Shown: positions 6,872 to 16,288, numbered from the stretch's first letter. The stretch: DNA of 64,000 bases from an uncultured Acidobacteriota bacterium (GCA_963813155.1 CAWEYG010000003.1:288001-352000); one strand, 5' to 3'. The notes: a model not told the origin generated them from the letters alone. Numbers and translations are program-made.

Positions 6872-6954
6872 GTCATTCCCGCGAAAGCGGGAATCGCCCG
6901 GCGCGGGCTCGACCTCACCCGGCCTCACGGCCACCCTCTCCATGTGGAGAGGGT
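6872..6954. repeat. REP-like palindromic elements upstream of intI
   Basis: GATTCCC-type hairpin GTCATTCCCGCGAAAGCGGGAATC (6872-6895) and ACCCTCTCCA-tg-TGGAGAGGGT hairpin near 6933-6954. Confidence 0.55.
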
Positions 6955-7126
6955 AAATCGAGCATTCCCTTTAGTCGCGCCGAAGCCTTCCGACTTCGCC
7001 AAAGCGCTTCGTCGCGACGGCGAGTGGCGAAGGCGGATGTCCCCTTTTTCCGTTTCCGCGATGAGCAGGGCGAGGGAGAACCTCGAAATGCAGGAAGGCG
7101 CAAGAAAGGCGTATACTCTACGAGCC

Positions 7127-8120
7127 ATGCCAGCGGCACCGATTCCTCCCCCGGCGCCCGGCCCGCGCCTGCTCGATCGCGTACGGGTTTGCGTACGTGC
7201 CCGCCACTATTCGATCCGCACCGAAGAGGCCTATGTTGGGTGGATCCGCCGATTCATCCTCTTCCACGGCAAGCGGCACCCGAGCGAGATGGGAGAGCCG
7301 GAAATCAACGCGTTTCTCTCGCACCTGGCGACGGCCAACAAGGTTTCGGCCTCGACCCAGACTCAGGCGCTCTCGGCGCTGTTGTTTCTGTACCGGGTGG
7401 TTCTCCTCAAACCCTTTCCCTCGATCGCCGACCTTATCCGCGCGAAGAAACCGAAACGTCTGCCAACCGTTCTCACCCGGGAGGAAGTCAGAGCCGTGCT
7501 TTCGCAGCTCGACGGTGTCCCGAAACTCGTGGCTGCCGTTCTCTATGGTTCGGGGCTTCGGCTTCTCGAAACCTTACGCCTTCGAGTGAAAGACATCGAT
7601 ACCGAAAGAAACCAGATCACCGTCCGTGACGGGAAGGGCCAGAAAGACCGTCTCACGATGCTGTCGGTTTCGGCCCGAGCAGGGCTCATCGAACATCTCG
7701 AGGGCGTTCGCCGCTTGCACCGCGAGGACCTCGGCCGGGGGGTTCGGAGCGGTTTTTCTCCCAGACGCTCTGGCTCGGAAATATCCCGGCTCCCCGAAGG
7801 AATGGGCCTGGCAATGGGTCTTTCCCGCGGATTCTCGTTCCGTTGATCCTCGGTCACAGGCGGTTGCCCGCCACCACGTTCATGAGCGCCTGATTCAGAG
7901 AGCCGTGAAGCAGGCCGTCCGAAAAGCAAAGATCTCGAAACCGGCAGCCTGCCATACTCTCAGACATTCATTCGCGACACACCTTCTGGAGGATGGCTAC
8001 GACATCCGGACCATCCAGGAGTTGCTTGGCCATAAGGACGTTTCAACCACGATGATCTACACCCATGTGCTCAACCGGAGCGGCGGACTGGGGGTGAGAA
8101 GTCCAATGGACAAGCTATGA
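7127..8120 (+). CDS. intI: Integron integrase (tyrosine recombinase), one frameshift near 7740
   Basis: [25 protein letters not shown]-terminal domain, YGSGLR, IntI-specific patch WQWVFPA...DPRS...[28 protein letters not shown]. Confidence 0.97.
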
Positions 8121-8289
8121 GCCCGTGTCGTTTTGACCGGTCGGGTTTTCGATCTTCGGCGACAAATCTCGTCGTGTTGATCGGTTCGTCAGGTGGCGAG
8201 GAAGTCGAGGGTCTAAAATGGGTTGGATGATAAAAGTGCCAGAAATGCAAATCGACTTAGGCGACAGATTTCGACGCGTTTGCCGAATC

Positions 8290-8316
8290 CTTTGGGACGC
8301 CGAATACATGTTCGCC
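8290..8316 (+). other. attI: attI recombination site, crossover G8310|T8311
   Basis: CGCCGAA-TACAT-G|TTCGCC; the sequence after the crossover (GTTCGCCCACCC) complements the end of cassette 1 (GGTGGGGCGAAC); no attC hairpin upstream. Confidence 0.75.
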
Positions 8317-8326
8317 CACCCGAGCA

Positions 8327-8695
8327 ATGTTTAGGTCCATCGTCTTCCTCGGTCTGGTGGGGTTTATTGTCACGCCTGACGCCAGGGCTCTCCCTTCCGA
8401 CAAGATCACGGTTCCCGAACTGCTCGACCGGGTAGAGCCGCAGACGGTTCCACTGCCGAGTCCCCTCATTATTCGAAACCCGGAACTCAGGCTTCAGATA
8501 ACCGTCGACCCGACCGGCAAGGTCGACGACATCAAGGTGTTACGTTCCGTTCAACCTCGAGTTGATCGGGCCTGGGTGGCAGCGGTGAAACAGTGGCGGT
8601 ATAAGCCCGCGATGCGTAATGGGACGGCCATTCAGTACAAAATTAAACTCGTGACATGGGTCCACGCGGAACGATGGCCACGCGAAGCGAAGTAG
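8327..8695 (+). CDS. Cassette 1: secreted TonB C-terminal domain protein
   Basis: Signal peptide; ITVDPTGKVDDIKVLRS...AAVKQWRYKPAMRNG. Confidence 0.8.
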   Translation: MFRSIVFLGLVGFIVTPDARALPSDKITVPELLDRVEPQTVPLPSPLIIRNPELRLQITVDPTGKVDDIKVLRSVQPRVDRAWVAAVKQWRYKPAMRNGTAIQYKIKLVTWVHAERWPREAK

Positions 8696-8705
8696 TGCGG
8701 GGTGG

Positions 8706-8766
8706 GGCGAACATCGGCGTGCAGCGGATGTCGCTTCGCTCCACCGCTGACGCCGGGTCGTTATGC
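8706..8766 (+). repeat. attC: attC1 (61 bp)
   Basis: GGCGAAC...GGCGT(G)CAGCGG/CCGCTGACGCC stem...GTTATGC. Confidence 0.95.
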
Positions 8767-8789
8767 CACCTAATCGGCGACGGGGGCAA

Positions 8790-9097
8790 ATGACGACGCG
8801 GGAGGATAACTTGCTTTCCGGCCGAGGGCGGTGGGCTCTTGGAGCGATCGCGATCTCCCTCGGGCAGGCTGCTTGGCTCTACAACACGGTCAAAACTGCA
8901 AACATTCTCAACGCGGCGCAGATACGGCCCATCTTGCTTCTTGGTCTAGTGGGCTGGTCTGTCGGCCTTGCCATGGGACTCGCGGGAATCCGAGTCGGCT
9001 CTCCGTCGCAAAACTCGTCTCAGCGCTCGGAATCATTGCAAACTTGGCCGGTGTCGCAGTCACGCTGTGGAAAATGGCGACCTGGTGGGTGGCCTAA
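8790..9097 (+). CDS. Cassette 2: small 3-TM membrane protein (frameshift near 9003)
   Basis: Hydrophobic helices in ORF 8763 frame continue in ORF 8831 frame; ends at the TAA inside attC2 R''; alternative start 8763. Confidence 0.6.
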
Positions 9098-9152
9098 CAT
9101 GCGCGTGCAGCGGATGTCGCTTCGCTCCACCGCTGACGCCGGGTCGTTAGGC
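9092..9152 (+). repeat. attC: attC2 (61 bp)
   Basis: GCCTAAC...GTTAGGC, same internal stem as attC1. Confidence 0.95.
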
Positions 9153-9165
9153 CGCCGAGACTGAT

Positions 9166-9569
9166 ATGCCTTTGAGACCAAGGGATCTGGAGGCGCAGGG
9201 AATCCCGATCACGTTCGAACAGCCAGGCGAGGTGACCGTTCGCGTCGGCCCCTGCTCAGGGCAGAGATTAGAGCGCAAGAAGATCCCTTGGACGGCCGTC
9301 GCTACATCTGTGCTGGCACGATCTTCTTGAAGAACGGGTCGAAGCTTCAGGCAAACTTCGAAATCGAGACGCACAGCTTTGATTTCCTCGACCGCGAGAG
9401 CGTTCAGTGCCTCATCGGCGACGCTTGGTACGGAATCGACGAACCCGAGCTGTGGGCGGTACTCGGCATTTCCCAGAAGGATGGCTTGCCAGATTGCTGG
9501 TTGCCGGATGTCCCACTCGATTACCACGTCCCCGGCCCTTACCCGATGAACTGGAAGGGCAAGAAATGA
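9166..9569 (+). CDS. Cassette 3: hypothetical protein (frameshift near 9287)
   Basis: ATG 9166 MPLRPRDLEAQG...KKIP joins ORF 9288-9569 if one C is added to a C-run. Confidence 0.6.
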
Positions 9570-9576
9570 CCCAGCG

Positions 9577-9637
9577 GCCTAACCCGCGCGTGCAGCGGAT
9601 GTCGCTACGCTCCACCGCTGACGCCGAACCGTTCGGC
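9577..9637 (+). repeat. attC: attC3 (61 bp)
   Basis: GCCTAAC...GTTCGGC. Confidence 0.95.
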
Positions 9638-9654
9638 AACGTTAAGGAGCGTCG

Positions 9655-10030
9655 GTGGCTCAAGAAAAGCTGATCGTGCCCGATGATCGGCCACTGACGA
9701 GCGGTGAGCGTGAGTTGATCACGTGGCTGCTCGATCATGGGTCGGCGGAAGCGGCGGCATATCGCGGCCAGCTGTCGCGGGTTCATGTCGTTTCGAGGTG
9801 TGGGTGCGGCTGTCCGACCGTCGATCTCGCACTTGCCGGAAGCATCAAGCGGTCTGGATCGTCGGCGATCCTGGCCGACTTCACCGGCCGTTCACCAGAA
9901 GGCGTCCTAGTCGGCGTCATGCTTACTGGTCGCGAGGGCGAACTCTCGGAGCTTGAGGTTTATTCAAAGGATGGGGCAGGTCGCCACCTTCGGGGGGCTG
10001 CCCGTGCCGGTGGATCTGGAGTCGGCGTGA
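9655..10030 (+). CDS. Cassette 4: hypothetical protein with CxCGCP motif
   Basis: AAGGAG SD before GTG 9655; SRCGCGCPTVDL; true stop inferred at TGA 10028-10030 after an indel near 9975-9995. Confidence 0.65.
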
Positions 10031-10034
10031 CGTT

Positions 10035-10098
10035 GCCGAACATCGGCTTGCAGCGGACTGCGCCCTGCGGGCTTGCCGCTGAAGCCGGGTCGTTCGGT
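10035..10098 (+). repeat. attC: attC4 (64 bp)
   Basis: GCCGAAC...GGCTT(G)CAGCGG/CCGCTGAAGCC...GTTCGGT. Confidence 0.95.
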
Positions 10099-10103
10099 CG
10101 TCG

Positions 10104-10402
10104 ATGAGTCGCGATGACGGTCAGAAGTTCATCGATCGTTATGACGAGAAGCAGAGTCACAACCTCGACCCCGGATATTTCACGGGCGGTCGCCTGGAGC
10201 CGGTCTTCTTGGCGAGGAGGCCGAATAAATGGGGCTGGACGCTGCTCGTGGGCGGGTTCACGGCACTCGGGCGATCGTGTTGAATCGTGCAGATACGACC
10301 TGGTGGGAAAGTGGTCGTCGGCTCGTCGGCGTCGCTAGTCTCATGATCGTTGCGGGCGTCAAAGCGCGCCGGTGGCCGAATCGACGCGGAGGAAAACCGT
10401 GA
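10104..10402 (+). CDS. Cassette 5: small membrane protein (several indels)
   Basis: ATG 10104 MSRDDGQKFIDRYDEKQSHNLDPGYFTGGRL...WGWTLLVGG; later hydrophobic stretch in other frames; end inferred. Confidence 0.45.
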
Positions 10403-10415
10403 GAAGGTCGAGACG

Positions 10416-10476
10416 ACCGAACATCGGCGTGCAGCGGATGTCGCTGCGCGCCACCGCTGACGCCGGGTCGTTAGGG
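10416..10476 (+). repeat. attC: attC5 (61 bp)
   Basis: ACCGAAC...GTTAGGG. Confidence 0.95.
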
Positions 10477-10487
10477 AGACGGTAACC

Positions 10488-10902
10488 GTGAGAAGTTTCG
10501 TGAAGCCGCTTACCACCATTGTTCGTCGCCGTTGTCCTCACTTCCCTTTTCTGGAATTTGGCTTTCCGCCACGTTCCCGGGTCCATGGTGCTGTTTAACA
10601 TCGGCAGACTGGCCATCGCGGCGTGGGCAGGCTGGCGCGTTGTGTCACTCGGCTCGGGAAGTCTTTCCCAAGCCGCCCTATCCGGTGCGATCGTCTTCTT
10701 GATCGACCATGTGTTCTTGAAGGGTGGGTATTTTCTGGGCGAGGCCGTGCTTACTACCGGCGTCGACCGGCATAAGTACCTCCTCGCGTTCGGCGGCGTC
10801 TGCGTGTCCTATCTCATGTTTGTCGCAATCCCGGTCGGCCTCGCGGTTTGCGGAGGCTTAGCGGCCCGGTCGCGCAAGAGGGCAGAAGATGCGCCTGCCT
10901 AA
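10488..10902 (+). CDS. Cassette 6: 4-TM membrane protein
   Basis: ORF 10519-10902 ends at TAA in R''; GTG 10488 start inferred across an indel near 10512. Confidence 0.7.
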
Positions 10903-10957
10903 CATGCGCGTGCAGCGGACTTCGCTACGCTCGCCGCTGACGCGCAAGGCGTTGGGC
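10897..10957 (+). repeat. attC: attC6 (61 bp, divergent variant)
   Basis: GCCTAAC...GTTGGGC; one base shorter in the loop region and one longer before R' than attC1-type. Confidence 0.93.
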
Positions 10958-10986
10958 AGCCAAAGTAAGGGTGGCGTGGAAAACAT

Positions 10987-11343
10987 ATGAAGTTGAGCAC
11001 TTCTAGGCACGTTCTTGTCGGCTCGGCTAGCCTTGTAGCACTCAGCACTGCAGTTCTGCCGTCGGTCACAGGATATGGGACCACGCTTTTCCAAATCGTT
11101 GTGCTTGGCGCCTGGTCGATTGTTGCACACCTATCCTCTGGAGCCTTCGCTGACCAACATCAGGGCCCGGTGTGGTTCGTCACGCTCATCCTTAATGTGG
11201 TGCTCTTTCTGGTCCCAGCATTGGCGGTCTATGTACCGGGACGAAAGCGTTTGCCGATGTTGACAGTGGTCGTTCTACTCTCTTGGCTGAGCTTCTACCT
11301 CGCATCGCTGTTCTTTCTCTCCCCGGCAACGGATGGACCATGA
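10987..11343 (+). CDS. Cassette 7: membrane protein
   Basis: 118 aa, 3-4 hydrophobic helices, fills the cassette. Confidence 0.8.
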   Translation: MKLSTSRHVLVGSASLVALSTAVLPSVTGYGTTLFQIVVLGAWSIVAHLSSGAFADQHQGPVWFVTLILNVVLFLVPALAVYVPGRKRLPMLTVVVLLSWLSFYLASLFFLSPATDGP

Positions 11344-11362
11344 TGGCAAGCGCGGCCGGGCT

Positions 11363-11426
11363 GCCCAACATCGGCTTGCAGCGGACTTCGGCCTGCGGCC
11401 TTGCCGCTGAAGCCGGGTCGTTGGGC
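11363..11426 (+). repeat. attC: attC7 (64 bp)
   Basis: GCCCAAC...GTTGGGC. Confidence 0.95.
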
Positions 11427-11440
11427 GACGAGAAGCGGCG

Positions 11441-11756
11441 ATGACGGCACCTTCCATCTCGCGAGCTGTTGCCAAAGATGCTATCTGGGCTCGCCTCGGG
11501 CAGCTCCGAGTCGAGGTCTTATGACGATCTGCGGGACCTTGCTGATTCTAAGGAGAACCTCCGAGTCGACGGCGTTGACGCGACACTGTGCGTTTTCCGC
11601 GAGGCCCAGAAGGACGGCTCGATTTGGGTTATCGGGCAGCTCGCCACGCCATCACGACCTTTCCTCGTCGTATTCAGCAGCCGACAACTGTTCGCAGAAG
11701 GTCTTGAAGCGCGCTCTGACGGCTCTGTTCGCGTGCTAAGCGTAGAGGGAACTTGA
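11441..11756 (+). CDS. Cassette 8: hypothetical protein (frameshift near 11506)
   Basis: ATG 11441 MTAPSISRAVAKDAIWARLGQL joins ESRSYDDLRDL... of ORF 11469-11756. Confidence 0.55.
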
Positions 11757-11776
11757 TTACTTCACCGCAAGGCGTC

Positions 11777-11840
11777 GCCCAACATCGGCTTGCAGCGGAC
11801 TTCGGCCTGCGGCCTCGCCGCTGAAGCCGGGTCGTTCGCG
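11777..11840 (+). repeat. attC: attC8 (64 bp)
   Basis: GCCCAAC...GTTCGCG. Confidence 0.95.
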
Positions 11841-11846
11841 CCCCGG

Positions 11847-12209
11847 ATGCAGGTCCTGCGCTCGATGGCGACGCCGGGTCTGGTCTTTCTACTTGTGGCT
11901 TCGCTGGCTTGCGTCAGTGATCAGCCATGCAGCACGCAATCGCCGAAGCCCATGAAGGCCGACTTTGAGGTGCCCCAGAACTTCTGGGATAAACATTCCG
12001 AGGGGAGCGTCACGCTTCGGGTCATCGTTGGGACCGATGGACGCATCACTTCGCCGGAGATTCTCCAGAGCAGCGGTCCAGACTATTCTGCGATCGCCCA
12101 GGAAAGCGTCTTGCGGTGGCAGTATCACCCAGTGATCTGCCGCGGTGCTCCCATTTCCTTCTATCTCACGGTGACGGTCAACTTCACAAAGAGTGGCAAG
12201 AGTGGATAG
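11847..12209 (+). CDS. Cassette 9: TonB C-terminal domain putative lipoprotein
   Basis: LVASLAC lipobox-like; EGSVTLRVIVGTDGRI...SVLRWQYHP...TVTVNF. Confidence 0.8.
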   Translation: MQVLRSMATPGLVFLLVASLACVSDQPCSTQSPKPMKADFEVPQNFWDKHSEGSVTLRVIVGTDGRITSPEILQSSGPDYSAIAQESVLRWQYHPVICRGAPISFYLTVTVNFTKSGKSG

Positions 12210-12221
12210 CCGAGAGCGGGT

Positions 12222-12282
12222 CGCGAACACCGGCGTGCAGCGGATGTCGCTGCGCTCCACCGCTGACGCCGAATCGTTCGAC
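12222..12282 (+). repeat. attC: attC9 (61 bp)
   Basis: CGCGAAC...GTTCGAC. Confidence 0.95.
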
Positions 12283-12300
12283 GGTCGAAGGGAGCCTAGG

Positions 12301-12717
12301 TTGGTGAACGCTGTTCTCGCCTTGGCAGCGGCGGCGATGTTCGGCACCTCGATTCTGCTCGCGCAGGGCGCGACGGGAGTGGGCGAGCCTCAGCCAGTCG
12401 AGATTCGTATTCCGGAATACCCGCTCTGGGCACGGAAGGCCCGTGTCCAAGTGACAATCGTCGTACGCGCCTCGATCGGTCCCGACGGCACCGTTAACCG
12501 TGCCCTCACGGTCAAAGACCCCTTTGCTAACCACAAACTCGACGATCTCCTGGAGGAATCGCTGAGTCGGTGGCGATTTCCCGCAGCTTCCGGACAAGCG
12601 GTTCGGGCTTCAGACATTACGTTTCATTTCGTCTTAGGCGACGAGACTCTCGTTAAGTACCTTCCACCAAACGAAGTCTTCATCGAGGCGACGATACCGC
12701 CCTTGGTGACTCGCTAG
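12301..12717 (+). CDS. Cassette 10: secreted TonB C-terminal domain protein
   Basis: Signal peptide; PEYPLWARKARVQ...IGPDGTV...RWRFP; start TTG 12301 or GTG 12304. Confidence 0.8.
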   Translation: MVNAVLALAAAAMFGTSILLAQGATGVGEPQPVEIRIPEYPLWARKARVQVTIVVRASIGPDGTVNRALTVKDPFANHKLDDLLEESLSRWRFPAASGQAVRASDITFHFVLGDETLVKYLPPNEVFIEATIPPLVTR

Positions 12718-12727
12718 CTATGCGACC

Positions 12728-12788
12728 GTCGAACATCGGCGTGCAGCGGATGTCGCTACGCGCCACCGCTGACGCCGGGTCGTTATGC
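12728..12788 (+). repeat. attC: attC10 (61 bp)
   Basis: GTCGAAC...GTTATGC. Confidence 0.95.
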
Positions 12789-12802
12789 GACTCGAGACCG
12801 TC

Positions 12803-13231
12803 GTGAAGGGTCAACAATCGTTGCGCAATACGCTCGTGGTCGTGGGGGCATACTTCCTGGGGGCGCAGGTCGCCGTCCTGCTCTTCTGGCCGATGTCGCT
12901 ACTCATACCAACCTATTCTTCAGGGGAGGCAACCGCGGAGGCGAGGAAGATGGCGGTTATCGACGCCTTCTACCGTGTACCGATATTCATGGGAGCGGTT
13001 CTCGCAGGCGTCGGCGTCGGTGTGTGTCTTCAAAGTGCTCGGCCTCGGGTGTGGATCGTCGTAACCGGCGTGGTCGTCGCCCTCTGTACCCTATCCTCGG
13101 CTGCGTGGAGTCTTTTCCCTCTTGCCCAGGCGGTTCACCACTTCGAGCGCGCCGTGGCTGCTGGCTTGCTCTCATCGCTCGCATGCCTAATGACCCTCCG
13201 AAAGCGAAAGGCCGTGAATGCGACCGCATAA
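12803..13231 (+). CDS. Cassette 11: 4-TM membrane protein
   Basis: ORF 12785-13231 ends at TAA in R''; start ATG 12785 or GTG 12803. Confidence 0.8.
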   Translation: MKGQQSLRNTLVVVGAYFLGAQVAVLLFWPMSLLIPTYSSGEATAEARKMAVIDAFYRVPIFMGAVLAGVGVGVCLQSARPRVWIVVTGVVVALCTLSSAAWSLFPLAQAVHHFERAVAAGLLSSLACLMTLRKRKAVNATA

Positions 13232-13286
13232 CATGCGCGTGCAGCGGATGTCGCTACGCGCCACCGCTGACGCCGAATCGTTACGG
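13226..13286 (+). repeat. attC: attC11 (61 bp)
   Basis: GCATAAC...GTTACGG. Confidence 0.95.
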
Positions 13287-13686
13287 CTTACCGTAACGAT
13301 TCTGCTCCGCGTCTGCGCTCTGGTGGTTGGGTTCCTAGCGGTTGTCTTTTTGCTGATGCCAGTTTACTTTCTGCGCTATGGGGCGGCGCCGATAGGAGAT
13401 GCAATCGCATCAGTAGGCGTTATCCTCTTGTCCCTCCTCTGTATGCGCTGTTTTCGATGGCTGTGGCGGCGCACTCGTTTTTGGACTGATTCACGATCAT
13501 TTAGTGAGGTCGCAGCACTAGCGGCAGCGATCGCTCTTTGGCCAGTCGCGATATATTTTGAGCGCAGAACGGTCGGAGTAGCAATAGATATCGTGCACAT
13601 GGTCGACGTTTCTGCTTATCGTCGGTGCTTACACCCTAGCTCGTCGTTGCTGGCACCAGAAGGCCAATCACAGTGCTGAGCCCTAA
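13281..13686 (+). CDS. Cassette 12: membrane protein with no clear start of its own (frameshift near 13597)
   Basis: First TM (TILLRVCALVVGFLAVVFLL) begins right after the crossover, in frame with attC11 ATGs; last TM is in another frame ending at TAA 13684-13686. Confidence 0.6.
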
Positions 13687-13756
13687 CAACTGCGCCCAGC
13701 GGACTTCGGCCCGCGGCTTCGCCGCGGCCCTCGCCGCTGACGCTCATCCGTTAGGT
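13681..13756 (+). repeat. attC: attC12 (76 bp)
   Basis: CCCTAAC...CAGCGG/CCGCTG stem with longer terminal hairpin...GTTAGGT. Confidence 0.9.
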
Positions 13757-13766
13757 GCCAAGAAGT

Positions 13767-14114
13767 ATGGCATTCGCTGAGATCGAACTTGCTAAGTACC
13801 GGCGCACTCTCGACGCCTGGATCGAGAAGAATCGACCGCCCCCAGAAGTCCGGCCGAAGCTCGATTTCGGGTACCGCATCGCCGGGCAGAGTGTCGAACT
13901 CTTTGAAATTCGCTCGACCTTCGGCCGCCCCGGTGAGAAGCGCGAGAACCCCTTTGCCAAAGCGACGTGGAACAGGAGCCGTGGCGTCTGGCAAGTTTAT
14001 TGGCAGCGGGCGGATCTCAAATGGCATTCTTATCAACCGGTGAAGGCCGTAGGAACGCTGGATAAGTTTCTCCAGACGGTTCGCGAGGACAAATATGCAT
14101 GCTTTTTTGGCTAG
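13767..14114 (+). CDS. Cassette 13: DUF3024-like protein
   Basis: RPPPEVRPKLD, WQVYWQRADLKWHSY, DKYACFFG resemble DUF3024. Confidence 0.8.
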   Translation: MAFAEIELAKYRRTLDAWIEKNRPPPEVRPKLDFGYRIAGQSVELFEIRSTFGRPGEKRENPFAKATWNRSRGVWQVYWQRADLKWHSYQPVKAVGTLDKFLQTVREDKYACFFG

Positions 14115-14126
14115 GCCCGGCGCGGC

Positions 14127-14187
14127 CCCTAACATCGGCGTCCAGCGGATGTCGCTGCGCGCCACCGCTGACGCCGGGTCGTTGGGG
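14127..14187 (+). repeat. attC: attC13 (61 bp)
   Basis: CCCTAAC...GTTGGGG. Confidence 0.95.
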
Positions 14188-14195
14188 AGCCGAAG

Positions 14196-14762
14196 ATGAC
14201 GAATCGGTCGATCGCCGGTCTCGTTTTCAAGGTCTGGGGAATCATTTGGATCGTGTCGGCGGCATCATCGGTCGGCAGCGTAACGGCGCTCCTCATGGCC
14301 TCCTCGCCGCCCGGACCTGAGAATGTGATGATGCACTGGACCAAGATGTCTTACGTTTTCGGTACAGTGTCACTGCTGGCCGCCGGAATCGCTTTGTCGT
14401 GCTTTGCCAGTCGAATATCCCGCAGTCTTTTTCCGACGGAAGAGCCTGTCCACCTTGATTTCAGCGCGGCAGCGCTTCAAGCCGCTTTATTCGCCGTTCT
14501 CGGAATCCATTTTGCGATCCGTGCTCTTCCTGGGGTCGTCTCCATCGTTTACGTGCTTCGCACGAAGCCATCTTGGGACGCGCAGTCAGCCGCGTCGTAC
14601 GCGTGGGACCGCAAGCGCGAAGCGGTTCTCAGCTCCACCGTGGAGCTAATCGCGGGCGTAACGCTATTCTTCTCCAGCAACGCCCTGAGTAGCCTCTGGC
14701 GTCGGTTGCGCCCGCTCTCGGAAACCCCTCAGCCGGCCGATCCTCCCAAAGAGGCCGAATGA
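14196..14762 (+). CDS. Cassette 14: 4-TM membrane protein
   Basis: 188 aa, four hydrophobic helices, fills the cassette. Confidence 0.8.
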   Translation: MTNRSIAGLVFKVWGIIWIVSAASSVGSVTALLMASSPPGPENVMMHWTKMSYVFGTVSLLAAGIALSCFASRISRSLFPTEEPVHLDFSAAALQAALFAVLGIHFAIRALPGVVSIVYVLRTKPSWDAQSAASYAWDRKREAVLSSTVELIAGVTLFFSSNALSSLWRRLRPLSETPQPADPPKEAE

Positions 14763-14772
14763 GATCGCGGCT

Positions 14773-14833
14773 CCCCAACACTGGCGTGCAGCGGATGGCA
14801 CTTCGCTCCATTGCTGACGCCGGGTCGTTAGGC
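14773..14833 (+). repeat. attC: attC14 (61 bp)
   Basis: CCCCAAC...GTTAGGC. Confidence 0.95.
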
Positions 14834-14838
14834 GGCCG

Positions 14839-15243
14839 GTGAAACGCGGAGGTGGAAAGCTGGTGGGCCTGCTTCTCCTGCCCGCCATTGTCCTGATCGC
14901 CGATTTTGTTGTTCGACAGGTTTTTCATCCATACGGCGCCGCCCGAATTACGTTGAACGTTGTCCACGCAGCGGTTGTTGTCTGGGCAGGATTTCGAATG
15001 ACGAGATCCGGATTCAATATGTCGCAAGCCGCATGGGTCGGTGTAGGTCTTCTATTTTTTGATCTGGTCGTCGTCGCAGGGCCATTCTTCGCAATTAGGG
15101 GCCTGGCAGTTCCAGGTGGTTGGAGGTCAGCGCTAGGCGGCGGCGTGGTTGCTTCGGTGTTCGGTGCTCCCTTGGCAGCAGCACTGGCCGCCCTAGGTGG
15201 GCTCGCCGGGCGAAAATGGAGGCCTACCAGTGCGGCCGTCTAA
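14839..15243 (+). CDS. Cassette 15: 4-TM membrane protein, similar to cassette 6
   Basis: 134 aa; WAGFR...MSQAA and LAALGGLAGR echo cassette 6; ends at TAA in R''. Confidence 0.8.
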   Translation: MKRGGGKLVGLLLLPAIVLIADFVVRQVFHPYGAARITLNVVHAAVVVWAGFRMTRSGFNMSQAAWVGVGLLFFDLVVVAGPFFAIRGLAVPGGWRSALGGGVVASVFGAPLAAALAALGGLAGRKWRPTSAAV

Positions 15244-15301
15244 CATTGGCTTGCAGCGGACTTCGGCCTGCGGCCTTGCCGCTGAAGCCGGGTCGTTCGG
15301 C
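15238..15301 (+). repeat. attC: attC15 (64 bp)
   Basis: GTCTAAC...GTTCGGC. Confidence 0.95.
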
Positions 15302-15317
15302 AACCCAATCTCCGTGA

Positions 15318-15624
15318 TCAGCTGCGGCGTCGCCAGTAGCCCGGGCGCCGCCTCGTGTGCGCGACGGCCCAGACGATCAGGTCGTCGCCTCGTCGCTCGA
15401 AATGGAGAACGTACGGGAAGCGGCTCAGCGGCACCTTGCGGAACGTCGTGGTCCTCGACCTTGGTCGGTGTTCCTGGGAGCATTCCGGAGGCAGCCTTAT
15501 CGACGTAGTCGTCGACCTCCGCCTGAAAATCCACACCGAGCCCCGGTCGGGCATTTTCGTAGCGTGTCGCGGCCGCGAGGTACTCGTCGCGAGCAGCCTC
15601 GTGAAATCGAACTCGCGCGCTCAA
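15318..15624 (-). CDS. Cassette 16: RelE/ParE-family toxin (frameshifted)
   Basis: FHEAARDEY...YENARPGLGVDF and RFPYVL...AVAHTRRRPGYW in two frames. Confidence 0.85.
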
Positions 15625-15857
15625 CCGCGCTTCAGGGCTTTCGAAACTTCGGCCTTGACCGTCTTTCCATCGATCAGGAGCGCCTTATCGGCGTCGGACT
15701 CCCGCACCCGGCTCTCGACTTCGGCGTCCCAGGCAGCCTCAACGCCGGCGTCGGGCTCGCCGTCAAGGCTGGCGATCAGCTCAGAAGCCAGTTTCGCGCG
15801 GTCTTCCCTGGGCAACTTCAAGGCTGTGTCGAGCAGGGTTCCCGCGGATGGGCTCAT
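15621..15857 (-). CDS. Cassette 16: addiction module antitoxin
   Basis: ALKLPREDRAKLASELIASLD...AWDAEVESR; directly upstream of and overlapping the toxin. Confidence 0.85.
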   Translation of the reverse strand: MSPSAGTLLDTALKLPREDRAKLASELIASLDGEPDAGVEAAWDAEVESRVRESDADKALLIDGKTVKAEVSKALKRG

Positions 15858-15886
15858 GACCCTCATTCTAACCCGGCGGGCGAGGT

Positions 15887-15962
15887 GCCGAACATCGGCT
15901 TGCAGCGGTCATTCGCTTTCGCCTTGCTTCGGTCGGCTGCCGCTGAAGCCGGATCGTTCGGG
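15887..15962 (+). repeat. attC: attC16 (76 bp)
   Basis: GCCGAAC...GGCTT(G)CAGCGG/CCGCTGAAGCC...GTTCGGG. Confidence 0.92.
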
Positions 15963-16030
15963 CGGTCGGAAACACGCTGATGGTTAAGCGGCGCAACGCA
16001 GCGATCAGCATCGAGCGACCCGGTCGCTGA

Positions 16031-16288
16031 ATGCAGTTCCTTCGCGAGTTGCGGGATCGAATCCGATCGGGCGAGATCACCTGCACCGTTCGCCTGTGGC
16101 AGCGCTCGCATGTGAAGGTCGGGGGGCGGTACTCGCTACCCCCTGGACACGTCGTCGTGACCGGCACTACCGAGATGTCACTGGACGACATCACGCCGTC
16201 TCTTGCGCGGCGATCCGGATTCGTCGGAGTGGTCGATCTCCTCAAGACGGCGAAGCACGGGCCTGGACCGCCGGGTTTTTCTGATTGA
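16031..16288 (+). CDS. ASCH-domain protein (C-terminus possibly frameshifted)
   Basis: IRSGEITCTVRLW, VKVGGRY, ARRSGF motifs. Confidence 0.7.
   Translation: MQFLRELRDRIRSGEITCTVRLWQRSHVKVGGRYSLPPGHVVVTGTTEMSLDDITPSLARRSGFVGVVDLLKTAKHGPGPPGFSD

Follow-up and report, generated by a model that had tools for sequence, protein, structure and literature searches.

Phase-locked open reading frames across the attC sites of an acidobacteriotal chromosomal integron, and a possible ribosome relay between its cassettes

In the standard model of integrons, attC sites are recombination hairpins that merely hinder the expression of distal cassettes, and to our knowledge the expression of promoter-distal cassettes is an open problem. 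The classical translational coupling of operon genes uses overlaps of stop and start codons such as ATGA and TGATG. Here, we describe a chromosomal integron found in a stretch of 64,000 nucleotides (nt) from an uncultured Acidobacteriota bacterium (GCA_963813155.1, CAWEYG010000003.1:288001-352000; the whole stretch is called the window below), which consists of a split integrase gene (intI), an attI site, 16 attC sites and same-strand cassettes. Its attC sites are imperfect inverted repeats of the form R''(..AAC)/L''...L'/R'(GTT..), each flanking a short cassette. From the analyses below we consider it probable that attI and every attC of this integron are built for translation in one fixed phase, as a ribosome relay from each cassette to the next.

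The closest described systems come from class 1 integrons. According to the parts of a review (PMC8876359) drawn on here, ORF-11/ORF-18 of attI1 (Hanau-Bercot 2002) is a short open reading frame (ORF) that, through reinitiation, enhances translation of the first cassette. As outlined there, ORF-11 starts in attI, crosses the recombination point and takes its stop from the cassette, either in GTTRRRY or in the 5' untranslated region (UTR), and in these respects it resembles the attI ORF of the window. It has, however, its own GGAG 8 nt upstream and serves the first position only (PMC8876359), whereas in the window the ATG abuts the crossover without a clear Shine-Dalgarno motif and the same phase continues through every attC. 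The same review describes, from Jacquier et al. (2009), how a terminating ribosome restarts on a short attC ORF, prevents formation of the stem-loop and reinitiates on the next cassette. Here too a short ORF leads from the preceding stop over the attC stem-loop to near the next start; the difference is that the earlier work, in the review's account, dealt with single attC sites in a class 1 array of clinical origin, while the window and its relatives display phasing across whole arrays. In the sections of Carvalho et al. (2024; PMC11511950) considered here, blocked translation of a cassette led to less mRNA and less expression downstream, an untranslated stretch of 3' UTR ahead of attC had a 4-fold lowering effect and translation extended to attC a 2-fold raising effect. 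Those results agree with the present locus in that translation reaching attC favours the next cassette and untranslated stretches are costly. They differ in coming from resistance cassettes in Escherichia coli, and the sections considered propose no linker ORF and do not contain the terms 'short ORF', 'reinitiation' or 'coupling'. With the coupling of operon genes the locus shares overlaps of stop and start codons by 4 to 5 nt, which here occur at either end of the linker, but the middle 'gene' is here a recombination site, the two halves of which come from different mobile units and are rebuilt at each recombination.

A mechanism of this kind is thus already known, from the attI1 coupling ORF and from a short ORF in one attC, while a frame standard held across arrays and lineages appears to be new. 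The initial annotation of the window knew of no described array-wide rule. A literature search for such a frame rule, for attC length modulo 3, for cassette ends phased to the crossover and their link to attI, for phase-dependent choice of stop codon, for an ATG at the attI crossover and for a contrast between sister families found none of these, with most subscription journals and the text of Jacquier et al. (2009) itself outside its coverage. The idea in the annotation has to be qualified by the precedents at attI1 and at one attC.

The attC sites of the window were located by pattern and then with a covariance model of 20 pairs built from them, against which each scores 53-83 bits; successive sites are spaced 326-594 nt apart. 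We refer to the frame that reads the AAC of R'' as Asn through attC as frame 0. All sites lie on the + strand, and the first coordinate given below for each is that of its AAC. Measured from AAC to GTT, ten sites are 53 nt long, four 56 nt and two 68 nt, all of them 2 mod 3. The initial annotation had reported AAC-to-TT distances of 51, 54 or 66 nt, and this proved correct for all 16 sites, so the T following the crossover in G|TT opens a codon in 16/16. Even attC6 retains the rule, being 53 nt long though its TGA sits in frame 1. Frame 0 is free of stops in 16/16 sites, as had also been claimed, yet the argument built on this openness holds only in part: frame 1 is likewise stop-free in 15/16, so frame 0 is not distinguished by being open. 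A conserved GCTGA closes frame 2 in 15/16. The attC RNAs give stable predicted hairpins, of -38 to -55 kcal/mol for 96-116 nt, with modest fold z-scores of -0.65 to -3.6. Two of the predicted hairpins, at 14105-14195 and 11338-11447, reach past R''/R' and have stop and start opposed at the stem base.

At attI, a phase-0 linker ORF was delineated by frame analysis at 8218..8334 (+ strand), with in-frame ATGs at 8218, 8227, 8245 and 8308. The last of these (8308-8310) ends precisely at the crossover G8310|T8311, from where the frame reads TTC.. onward to the stop TAG 8332, 5 nt 3' of ATG 8327, the start of the first cassette gene. The crossover was placed in GTT 8310-8312 because short-read contigs join 8309/8312 to 9146/9149 and to 14181/14184; the contigs come from four soil-metagenome runs of two studies (X1-X4), of which X1, X2 and X4 show these joints. 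A GAGGG lies 6 nt 5' of the in-frame ATG 8218, and no clear Shine-Dalgarno motif was seen before ATG 8308. A scan of 7700-8400 for a cassette promoter (Pc), which covered one promoter type only, returned no sigma-70-like match.

Across the attC sites, a frame-0 start lies on or next to the stop codon of the upstream gene in 14 of 16 cases. The entry starts and exit stops listed in the initial annotation were all recovered in frame 0 at their positions, together with the in-frame fusions, in which frame 0 continues into the next ORF after attC8, 9 and 11, and with the two exceptions that it had named. Linker ORF 1 (8695..8793, over attC1 at 8710-8762) enters at GTG 8695 within TAGTG (8693/8695) and leaves at TGA 8791, in an ATGA at 8790. 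Linker ORF 2 (9099..9164, over attC2 at 9096-9148) enters at ATG 9099 in the form TAAcATG and ends on TGA 9162, 4 nt 5' of ATG 9166; a short-read contig with an additional T after 9287 supports this gene start, since it makes 9166..9569 a single ORF, as had been assumed. Linker ORF 3 (9566..9673, over attC3 at 9581-9633) begins with an ATGA at 9566, and its stop, TGA 9671, lies 16 nt inside the gene starting at GTG 9655. Linker ORF 4 (10027..10107, over attC4 at 10039-10094) is entered through a GTGA at 10027, the stop of the upstream gene (10030) being inferred across a frameshift, and is left through an ATGA at 10104 (TGA 10105). Likewise, linker ORF 5 (10399..10485, over attC5 at 10420-10472) opens with GTG 10399 in a GTGA whose upstream stop (10402) is a reconstruction, and ends on TAA 10483, 5 nt 5' of GTG 10488. 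Linker ORF 6 (10904..10990, over attC6 at 10901-10953) runs from ATG 10904 in TAAcATG to TGA 10988 in an ATGA at 10987, and linker ORF 7 (11340..11444, over attC7 at 11367-11422) from an ATGA at 11340 to TGA 11442 in an ATGA at 11441.

Frame 0 over attC8 (11781-11836) extends over 11790..12209 and fuses into a TonB_C lipoprotein-like gene that has its own ATG at 11847. This site is the first exception, since the upstream stop, TGA 11754, itself lies in frame 0 and no entry start is found there. Over attC9 (12226-12278) the frame occupies 12202..12717, from GTG 12202, 5 nt 5' of TAG 12207, into a second TonB_C gene, the own start of which (TTG/GTG 12301/12304) is preceded by AAGGGAG. Linker ORF 10 (12720..12806, over attC10 at 12732-12784) has a TAGctATG entry at ATG 12720 and a GTGA exit at 12803 (TGA 12804). 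The frame over attC11 (13230-13282) spans 13233..13679; it is entered at ATG 13233 in TAAcATG and fuses into a membrane-protein ORF, which itself offers no convincing start upstream of GTG 13323. Linker ORF 12 (13673..13780), over the 68-nt attC12 (13685-13752), starts at GTG 13673, 4 nt 5' of TGA 13677, and stops at TGA 13778, 11 nt past the start (ATG 13767) of the DUF3024 gene. For attC13 (14131-14183), linker ORF 13 (14107..14199) leads from TTG 14107, 5 nt 5' of TAG 14112, to TGA 14197 in an ATGA at 14196, and for attC14 (14777-14829), linker ORF 14 (14759..14842) leads from an ATGA at 14759 to TGA 14840 in a GTGA at 14839. The second exception is attC15 (15242-15297), where the frame (15230..15508, from GTG 15230) enters an antisense cassette and ends on TAG 15506 with no partner gene. 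Over the 68-nt attC16 (15891-15958), frame 0 occupies 15885..15980 and leaves through a TGATG at 15978/15980 (TGA 15978). Past this last attC, a 16-codon ORF at 15980-16030 ends directly before the ASCH-like gene at ATG 16031 (TGAATG), and by way of this ORF the coupled chain appears to extend beyond the array.

The gene starts assumed in the initial annotation fared unevenly against a blind longest-ORF caller, which agreed at 9655, 10987, 14196 and 14839 and took other in-frame or shifted starts for 8790, 10104, 10488, 11441, 12803 and 13767; Pfam backs ATG 13767 (DUF3024, profile positions 3-112 of 112) and ATG 16031 (ASCH). Several cassette genes of the window are frameshifted in the assembly, and some of their starts and ends are reconstructions. 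The window by itself does not separate a grammar from chance, because its attC sites closely resemble one another and fall into only three length classes, and because any TGA after A, G or T creates an overlapping 'start'.

Relatives were therefore compared. In 40 relatives searched, an integrase relative was found in 40/40 and matches to the attC model in 36/40. The arrays of 17 relatives were taken, giving with the window's genome a comparison of 18 genomes in which attC sites were located with the covariance model; two further genomes, G002 and G008, are counted only in the tallies of the 40 and support no claim. The genomes fall into three groups, namely f1, the family of the window (4 genomes), f3 (11 genomes) and a sister family, f2 (G019, G033 and G037). 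They contain 592 cassettes; the 526 that satisfied the ORF criteria form 365 protein clusters, one member being kept per cluster and group. Matches lacking AAC or GTT at the model positions were dropped, as were attC pairs less than 150 nt or more than 1300 nt apart and 66 of the 592 cassettes, in which the longest ORF was below 50 codons, below half of the cassette or shorter than the antisense ORF. Leaders longer than 70 nt were excluded from the start-phase and exit counts, and stops outside -60..-1 from the entry counts. A codon-usage log-odds model trained on 380 long genome ORFs did not separate the cassette ORFs, which nearly all scored negative, and a frame plot of G+C content at third codon positions (GC3) was ambiguous for the cassettes. 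Genes were therefore called blindly as the longest same-strand ORF, from its first start codon, with a length-ratio filter for robustness.

The initial annotation had proposed that attC lengths be tabulated modulo 3 in relatives. They are not evenly spread: 455 of the 479 sites of f1 and f3 are 2 mod 3 (93/100 and 362/379, respectively). Among the length classes of f1 and f3 with at least 3 members, those of 50, 53, 56, 59, 62, 68, 89, 107 and 110 nt follow the rule, and by class 11 of 14 obey it (binomial P = 7e-4). Frame 0 is open in 96/100 sites of f1 and 369/379 of f3, compared with 35/196 of f2, where the TGA of L' falls in frame 0 and closes it. In f2 the lengths are also freer; G033 and G037 have classes of 50, 59 and 60 nt beside 48, 49 and 58 nt, and G019 is uniformly 52 nt. 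The length constraint is thus tied to an open frame 0, since it is kept in f1 and f3 and relaxed in f2. A 3-nt step in attC length would be the expected outcome of translation through the site, and no structural reason for it is apparent.

On the entry side, stops of upstream genes fall in phase 0 in 3 of 209 cases in f1 and f3 and 10 of 85 in f2. Where the stop is in phase 1, a frame-0 start within 6 nt and open to attC accompanies it in 73/88 cases in f1 and f3, as against 5/19 in f2 (P = 3e-6) and 9/118 in the corresponding control frame within these genomes. Such starts lie at offset -1 in 58 of the 73. The phase-1 stop contexts (n = 88) comprise ATGA in 34, GTGA in 22 and TTGA in 3, so that [AGT]TGA accounts for 59/88, compared with 6/50 of the phase-2 stops other than the R'' TAA in the same genomes (P = 2e-10) and a genome-wide baseline of 41% of 2427 ORFs. 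Control frames, too, have NTGA starts at 23-39%. The spacing of ATGA from AAC varies between 8 and 56 nt with the phase constant, and the spacer sequences are unrelated. Genes that stop on the TAA of R'' (the TAAC type) have a frame-0 start within 21 nt upstream in 47/69 cases in f1 and f3 vs 9/40 in f2. As a separate mark of this type we considered an ATG at +3 of attC, which is present at 3/4 such sites in the window and 0/12 others; this candidate was rejected on its frequencies of 3/10 in f1 and 3/58 in f3.

On the exit side, the distance from the frame-0 stop to the gene start was set against wrong-frame controls, again as proposed in the initial annotation, and the stop was found to adjoin the next start. 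In 59/74 phase-2 genes of f3, frame 0 first meets a stop within -5..+4 nt of the called start, vs 14/41 in the control frame (P = 2e-6). For phase-1 genes of f3 this stop lies within 25 nt of the start in 35/41, the controls being 9/36 in f3 and 5/36 in G033/G037; a second tally of phase-1 genes gives 39/45 against the same 5/36. In f1, the 25-nt window gives 24/26 against 13/26 in the control, which is significant. ATGA makes up 34 and GTGA 13 of the 157 exits of f3. Altogether, the frame ends within 25 nt of the start or is fused to the gene in 199/214 cassettes of f1 and f3; those fitting neither pattern number 4/57 in f1 and 11/157 in f3 (15/214 together), compared with 49/87 and 6/16 in f2 (55/103 together). 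Gene starts after the crossover in f1 number 26, 4 and 27 in phases 0, 1 and 2 (17, 0 and 19 for confident ORFs), phase 1 being nearly absent, and the phase spectra of f1 and f3 differ. We also looked for one rule, valid across families, that would relate gene phase to the conserved L' TGA, and found none. Same-genome other-frame and sister-family controls differ from frame 0 at P = 1e-6 to 1e-11.

Most cassette genes have no Shine-Dalgarno motif. GGAG, GAGG or AGGA at -18..-5 precedes the called start in 14/49 cases in f1, 29/156 in f3, 14/83 in G033/G037 and 3/14 in G019. Tightly coupled f3 genes do not differ in this from other f3 genes (9/66 vs 13/54), a result that is neutral for the model.

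The attI crossover was located in the relatives as the reverse complement of the R'' extension of the first attC (0-2 mismatches). A phase-0 ATG stands at -3 (ACATG|TT) or -9 from the crossover in 14/14 attI sites of f1 and f3 examined, and in 14/14 the stop of the attI ORF comes from the cassette, often as ATGA or TGATG at the cassette's start. Two attI sites of G033/G037 have TAG at -6 and no such start. The sister family f2, with frame 0 closed by TGA, lacks all of the relay features.

The short-read contigs also record natural rearrangements, which bear out recombination at the G|TT of attI and attC. In run X1, attI is joined to the cassette starting at 9147 (GTT 8310-8312 to GTT 9146-9148), and in runs X2 and X4 to the cassette starting at 14182 (GTT 8310-8312 to GTT 14181-14183). 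In both joints the frame from the attI ATG ends at the cassette's own TGA beside its start, and on paper at least the linker halves would function in their new contexts. The cassette 9632-10092 is joined head to tail in run X3, as a circle or a tandem copy, and several other cassette orders were seen, plus hybrid attC joints such as 10058>11395. Single-base indels separate short-read contigs from the window at 9287, 10311-10319, 13612, 15442 and 6927-6933. The -1 at 15442, inside the antisense toxin gene, was seen in three runs, and the -1 at 13612 would shift the stop of the cassette gene in which it lies to the TAA in R'' of attC12. Since the contigs differ from the window at these points, at least some of its frameshifts are assembly errors or strain differences.

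A phase-locked ORF grammar is therefore present, with signatures of selection at both cassette ends, in attC length and at attI. On balance it seems likely that this grammar is a four-part frame standard, kept in at least two families of Acidobacteriota (mostly Thermoanaerobaculia) and selected as an array-wide relay. Its parts would be an ATG at the attI crossover; an attC that is in every case an open, translated spacer of 3n+2 nt; a cassette end bearing a phase-0 start over the gene's stop; and a cassette beginning bearing a phase-0 stop over the gene's start. The initial annotation had placed the start and stop halves on the cassettes, phased to the crossover, and the entry and exit counts of f1 and f3 support this. 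Its further proposal, that any order would rebuild a coupled chain, finds support in the lengths modulo 3, the phase-0 ATG of attI and the natural rearrangements.

In the mechanism that we propose, a short linker ORF would start on or just before the stop of the upstream gene, usually as ATGA or GTGA, or alternatively at a start a few codons 5' of the TAA inside the R'' box. It would be read through the attC hairpin in the AAC = Asn frame, cross G|TT, the point of recombination, between two codons and end on or near the start of the next gene, mostly as ATGA, or fuse into that gene. Ribosomes finishing the upstream gene would reinitiate on the linker and unwind the attC stem-loop, so that translating ribosomes would cover the inter-cassette RNA and then terminate beside the downstream start, where the same ribosomes or fresh subunits would initiate. 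Since each linker joins a start half from the 3' end of one cassette to a stop half from the 5' end of its successor, any cassette order would rebuild a full linker, and any order would be compatible because all attC are 2 mod 3 and the attI ATG is in the same phase.

Several observations weigh against such a relay. Its support comes from sequence, and translation of the linkers is itself a deduction. Without a Shine-Dalgarno motif, the linker starts would rely entirely on reinitiation, and 33/58 TAAC-type cassettes of f3 have no canonical frame-0 start at +3..+24 of attC. The avoidance of phase-0 stops exceeds what the model strictly requires. In f1 the tight exit overlap, at 13/26 vs 8/26 in the control, is not significant (P = 0.26). 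Minor length classes of 52, 63 and 67 nt (13 sites) violate the modulo-3 rule, and frame 1 in f1 and frame 2 in f3 are also open through attC. The two families may represent just one or two independent origins, calling genes from the first start of the longest ORF adds noise, as do assembly indels, the window included, and the split intI of the window means that this copy of the integron may be inactive.

Among the other explanations, the one that survives best, which we nonetheless regard as unlikely, is that the linker is translated to cover the inter-cassette RNA of about 90 nt against Rho-dependent termination or decay, with the downstream genes initiating independently. The polar effects of cassette translation on downstream mRNA and expression in the sections of Carvalho et al. 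(2024; PMC11511950) considered here would fit this, as would the length of the arrays, the largest of which hold 81 attC in 40 kb, and in-frame fusions and stops within 25 nt of a start suit coverage as well as coupling. The exact 4-nt overlaps among the f3 exits (ATGA 34 and GTGA 13 of 157), however, have the classical geometry of reinitiation, which coverage does not need, and the same holds for the entries, 58/88 of which lie at offset -1. Protection of the RNA and hand-over of ribosomes are not mutually exclusive.

We think it distinctly improbable that the elements serve only for insulation, with frame 0 open for structural reasons, the 5' frame-0 stops halting stray ribosomes and linker starts under no selection. 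The exit signal is indeed numerically the strongest, with 15/214 cassettes incompatible, and many TAAC-type cassettes have no start inside attC. Entry starts, in contrast, bear signs of positive selection (ATGA, GTGA or TTGA at 59/88 phase-1 vs 6/50 phase-2 stops, on the 41% baseline), ATG is the commonest entry form although codons ending in A are rare, a phase-0 ATG marks the crossover in 14/14 attI sites of f1 and f3 examined, and a stop inside attC, as in f2, would be a simpler means to the same end. Very doubtful, too, is a coupling by structure without translation of attC, in which the base of the hairpin would juxtapose stop and start and terminating ribosomes would transfer across. The predicted minimum free energy (MFE) fold does pair 14105-14112, by TAG 14112, with 14187-14195, by AUG 14196, and the region of UGA 11341 with that of AUG 11441. 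This leaves unexplained a length of 2 mod 3 over nine length classes, a stop-free frame 0 and the phased distance from ATGA to AAC of 8 to 56 nt, and the fold z-scores (-0.65 to -3.6) are modest. Chance with shared descent, in which G+C-rich attC copies are open in several frames (frame 1 in 15/16 window sites) and loose criteria always find starts and stops, since any TGA after A, G or T gives an overlapping 'start', the window has only three length classes and NTGA starts occur at 23-39% in control frames, is the least credible explanation and is largely refuted by the same-genome frame and sister-family controls (P = 1e-6 to 1e-11), by the 365 unrelated protein clusters with tails varied in length and sequence, and by a modulo-3 rule that spans nine length classes.

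With regard to the platform itself, intI (6944..8120) lies on the + strand, the same strand as the cassettes, and is broken by a frameshift near 7722-7745 into two overlapping ORFs, 6944-7846 and 7626-8120. These two adjacent ORFs match the integron integrase profile TIGR02249 (315 positions) over 1-192 with 238 bits and over 185-315 with 212 bits; each alone falls below the 265-bit cut-off, and together they span the profile. They also match Pfam Phage_int_SAM_4 and Phage_integrase. The split is either an assembly indel, as in the cassettes, or the mark of an inactivated copy. In a search of genome contigs, the closest integrases came from metagenome-assembled genomes of Acidobacteriota, mostly Thermoanaerobaculia.

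The products of three cassettes of the window (8327-8695, 11847-12209 and 12301-12717) are small TonB_C-domain proteins, secreted or lipoprotein-like, and TonB_C cassettes of a similar kind recur in the arrays of relatives. Other cassette products include DUF6984, DUF3024 and several small membrane proteins without a family. The antisense toxin-antitoxin cassette (15318-15866, - strand), with an Unstab_antitox antitoxin and a ParE-like toxin, alone among the cassettes breaks the relay; the ORF of its toxin has a frameshift in the window. Away from the integrase, the same genome has further attC clusters or single sites at C3:142-145 kb, 184-187 kb and 583-588 kb, at C1:552640 and at C2:497429 and 633312. 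Many of their R boxes are decayed (ATC for AAC, GTG for GTT) and their lengths are not constant modulo 3; because of this decay they were left out as a test of length. One relative, G004, carries two integrons with integrases (L016 and L017) and further attC clusters, and the attI sites of both integrons share the core ACATG|TT.

If the frame standard is true, the length and sequence of attC would be constrained by translation and not by recombination alone, and selection for expression would shape recombination sites in both length class and sequence. The sister family f2, in which the same frame is closed by a stop and the grammar is absent, provides a natural contrast. The rules are simple and testable (attC length modulo 3 and the phases of gene ends and of attI) and would be checkable across all integrons; they could also aid the calling of cassette genes and the design of synthetic arrays. 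The standard would explain how genes without a Shine-Dalgarno motif can be expressed wherever they stand in an array of dozens of cassettes. Cassettes would then be 'plug-compatible' for expression in any order, a property that is absent from the current model of integrons.

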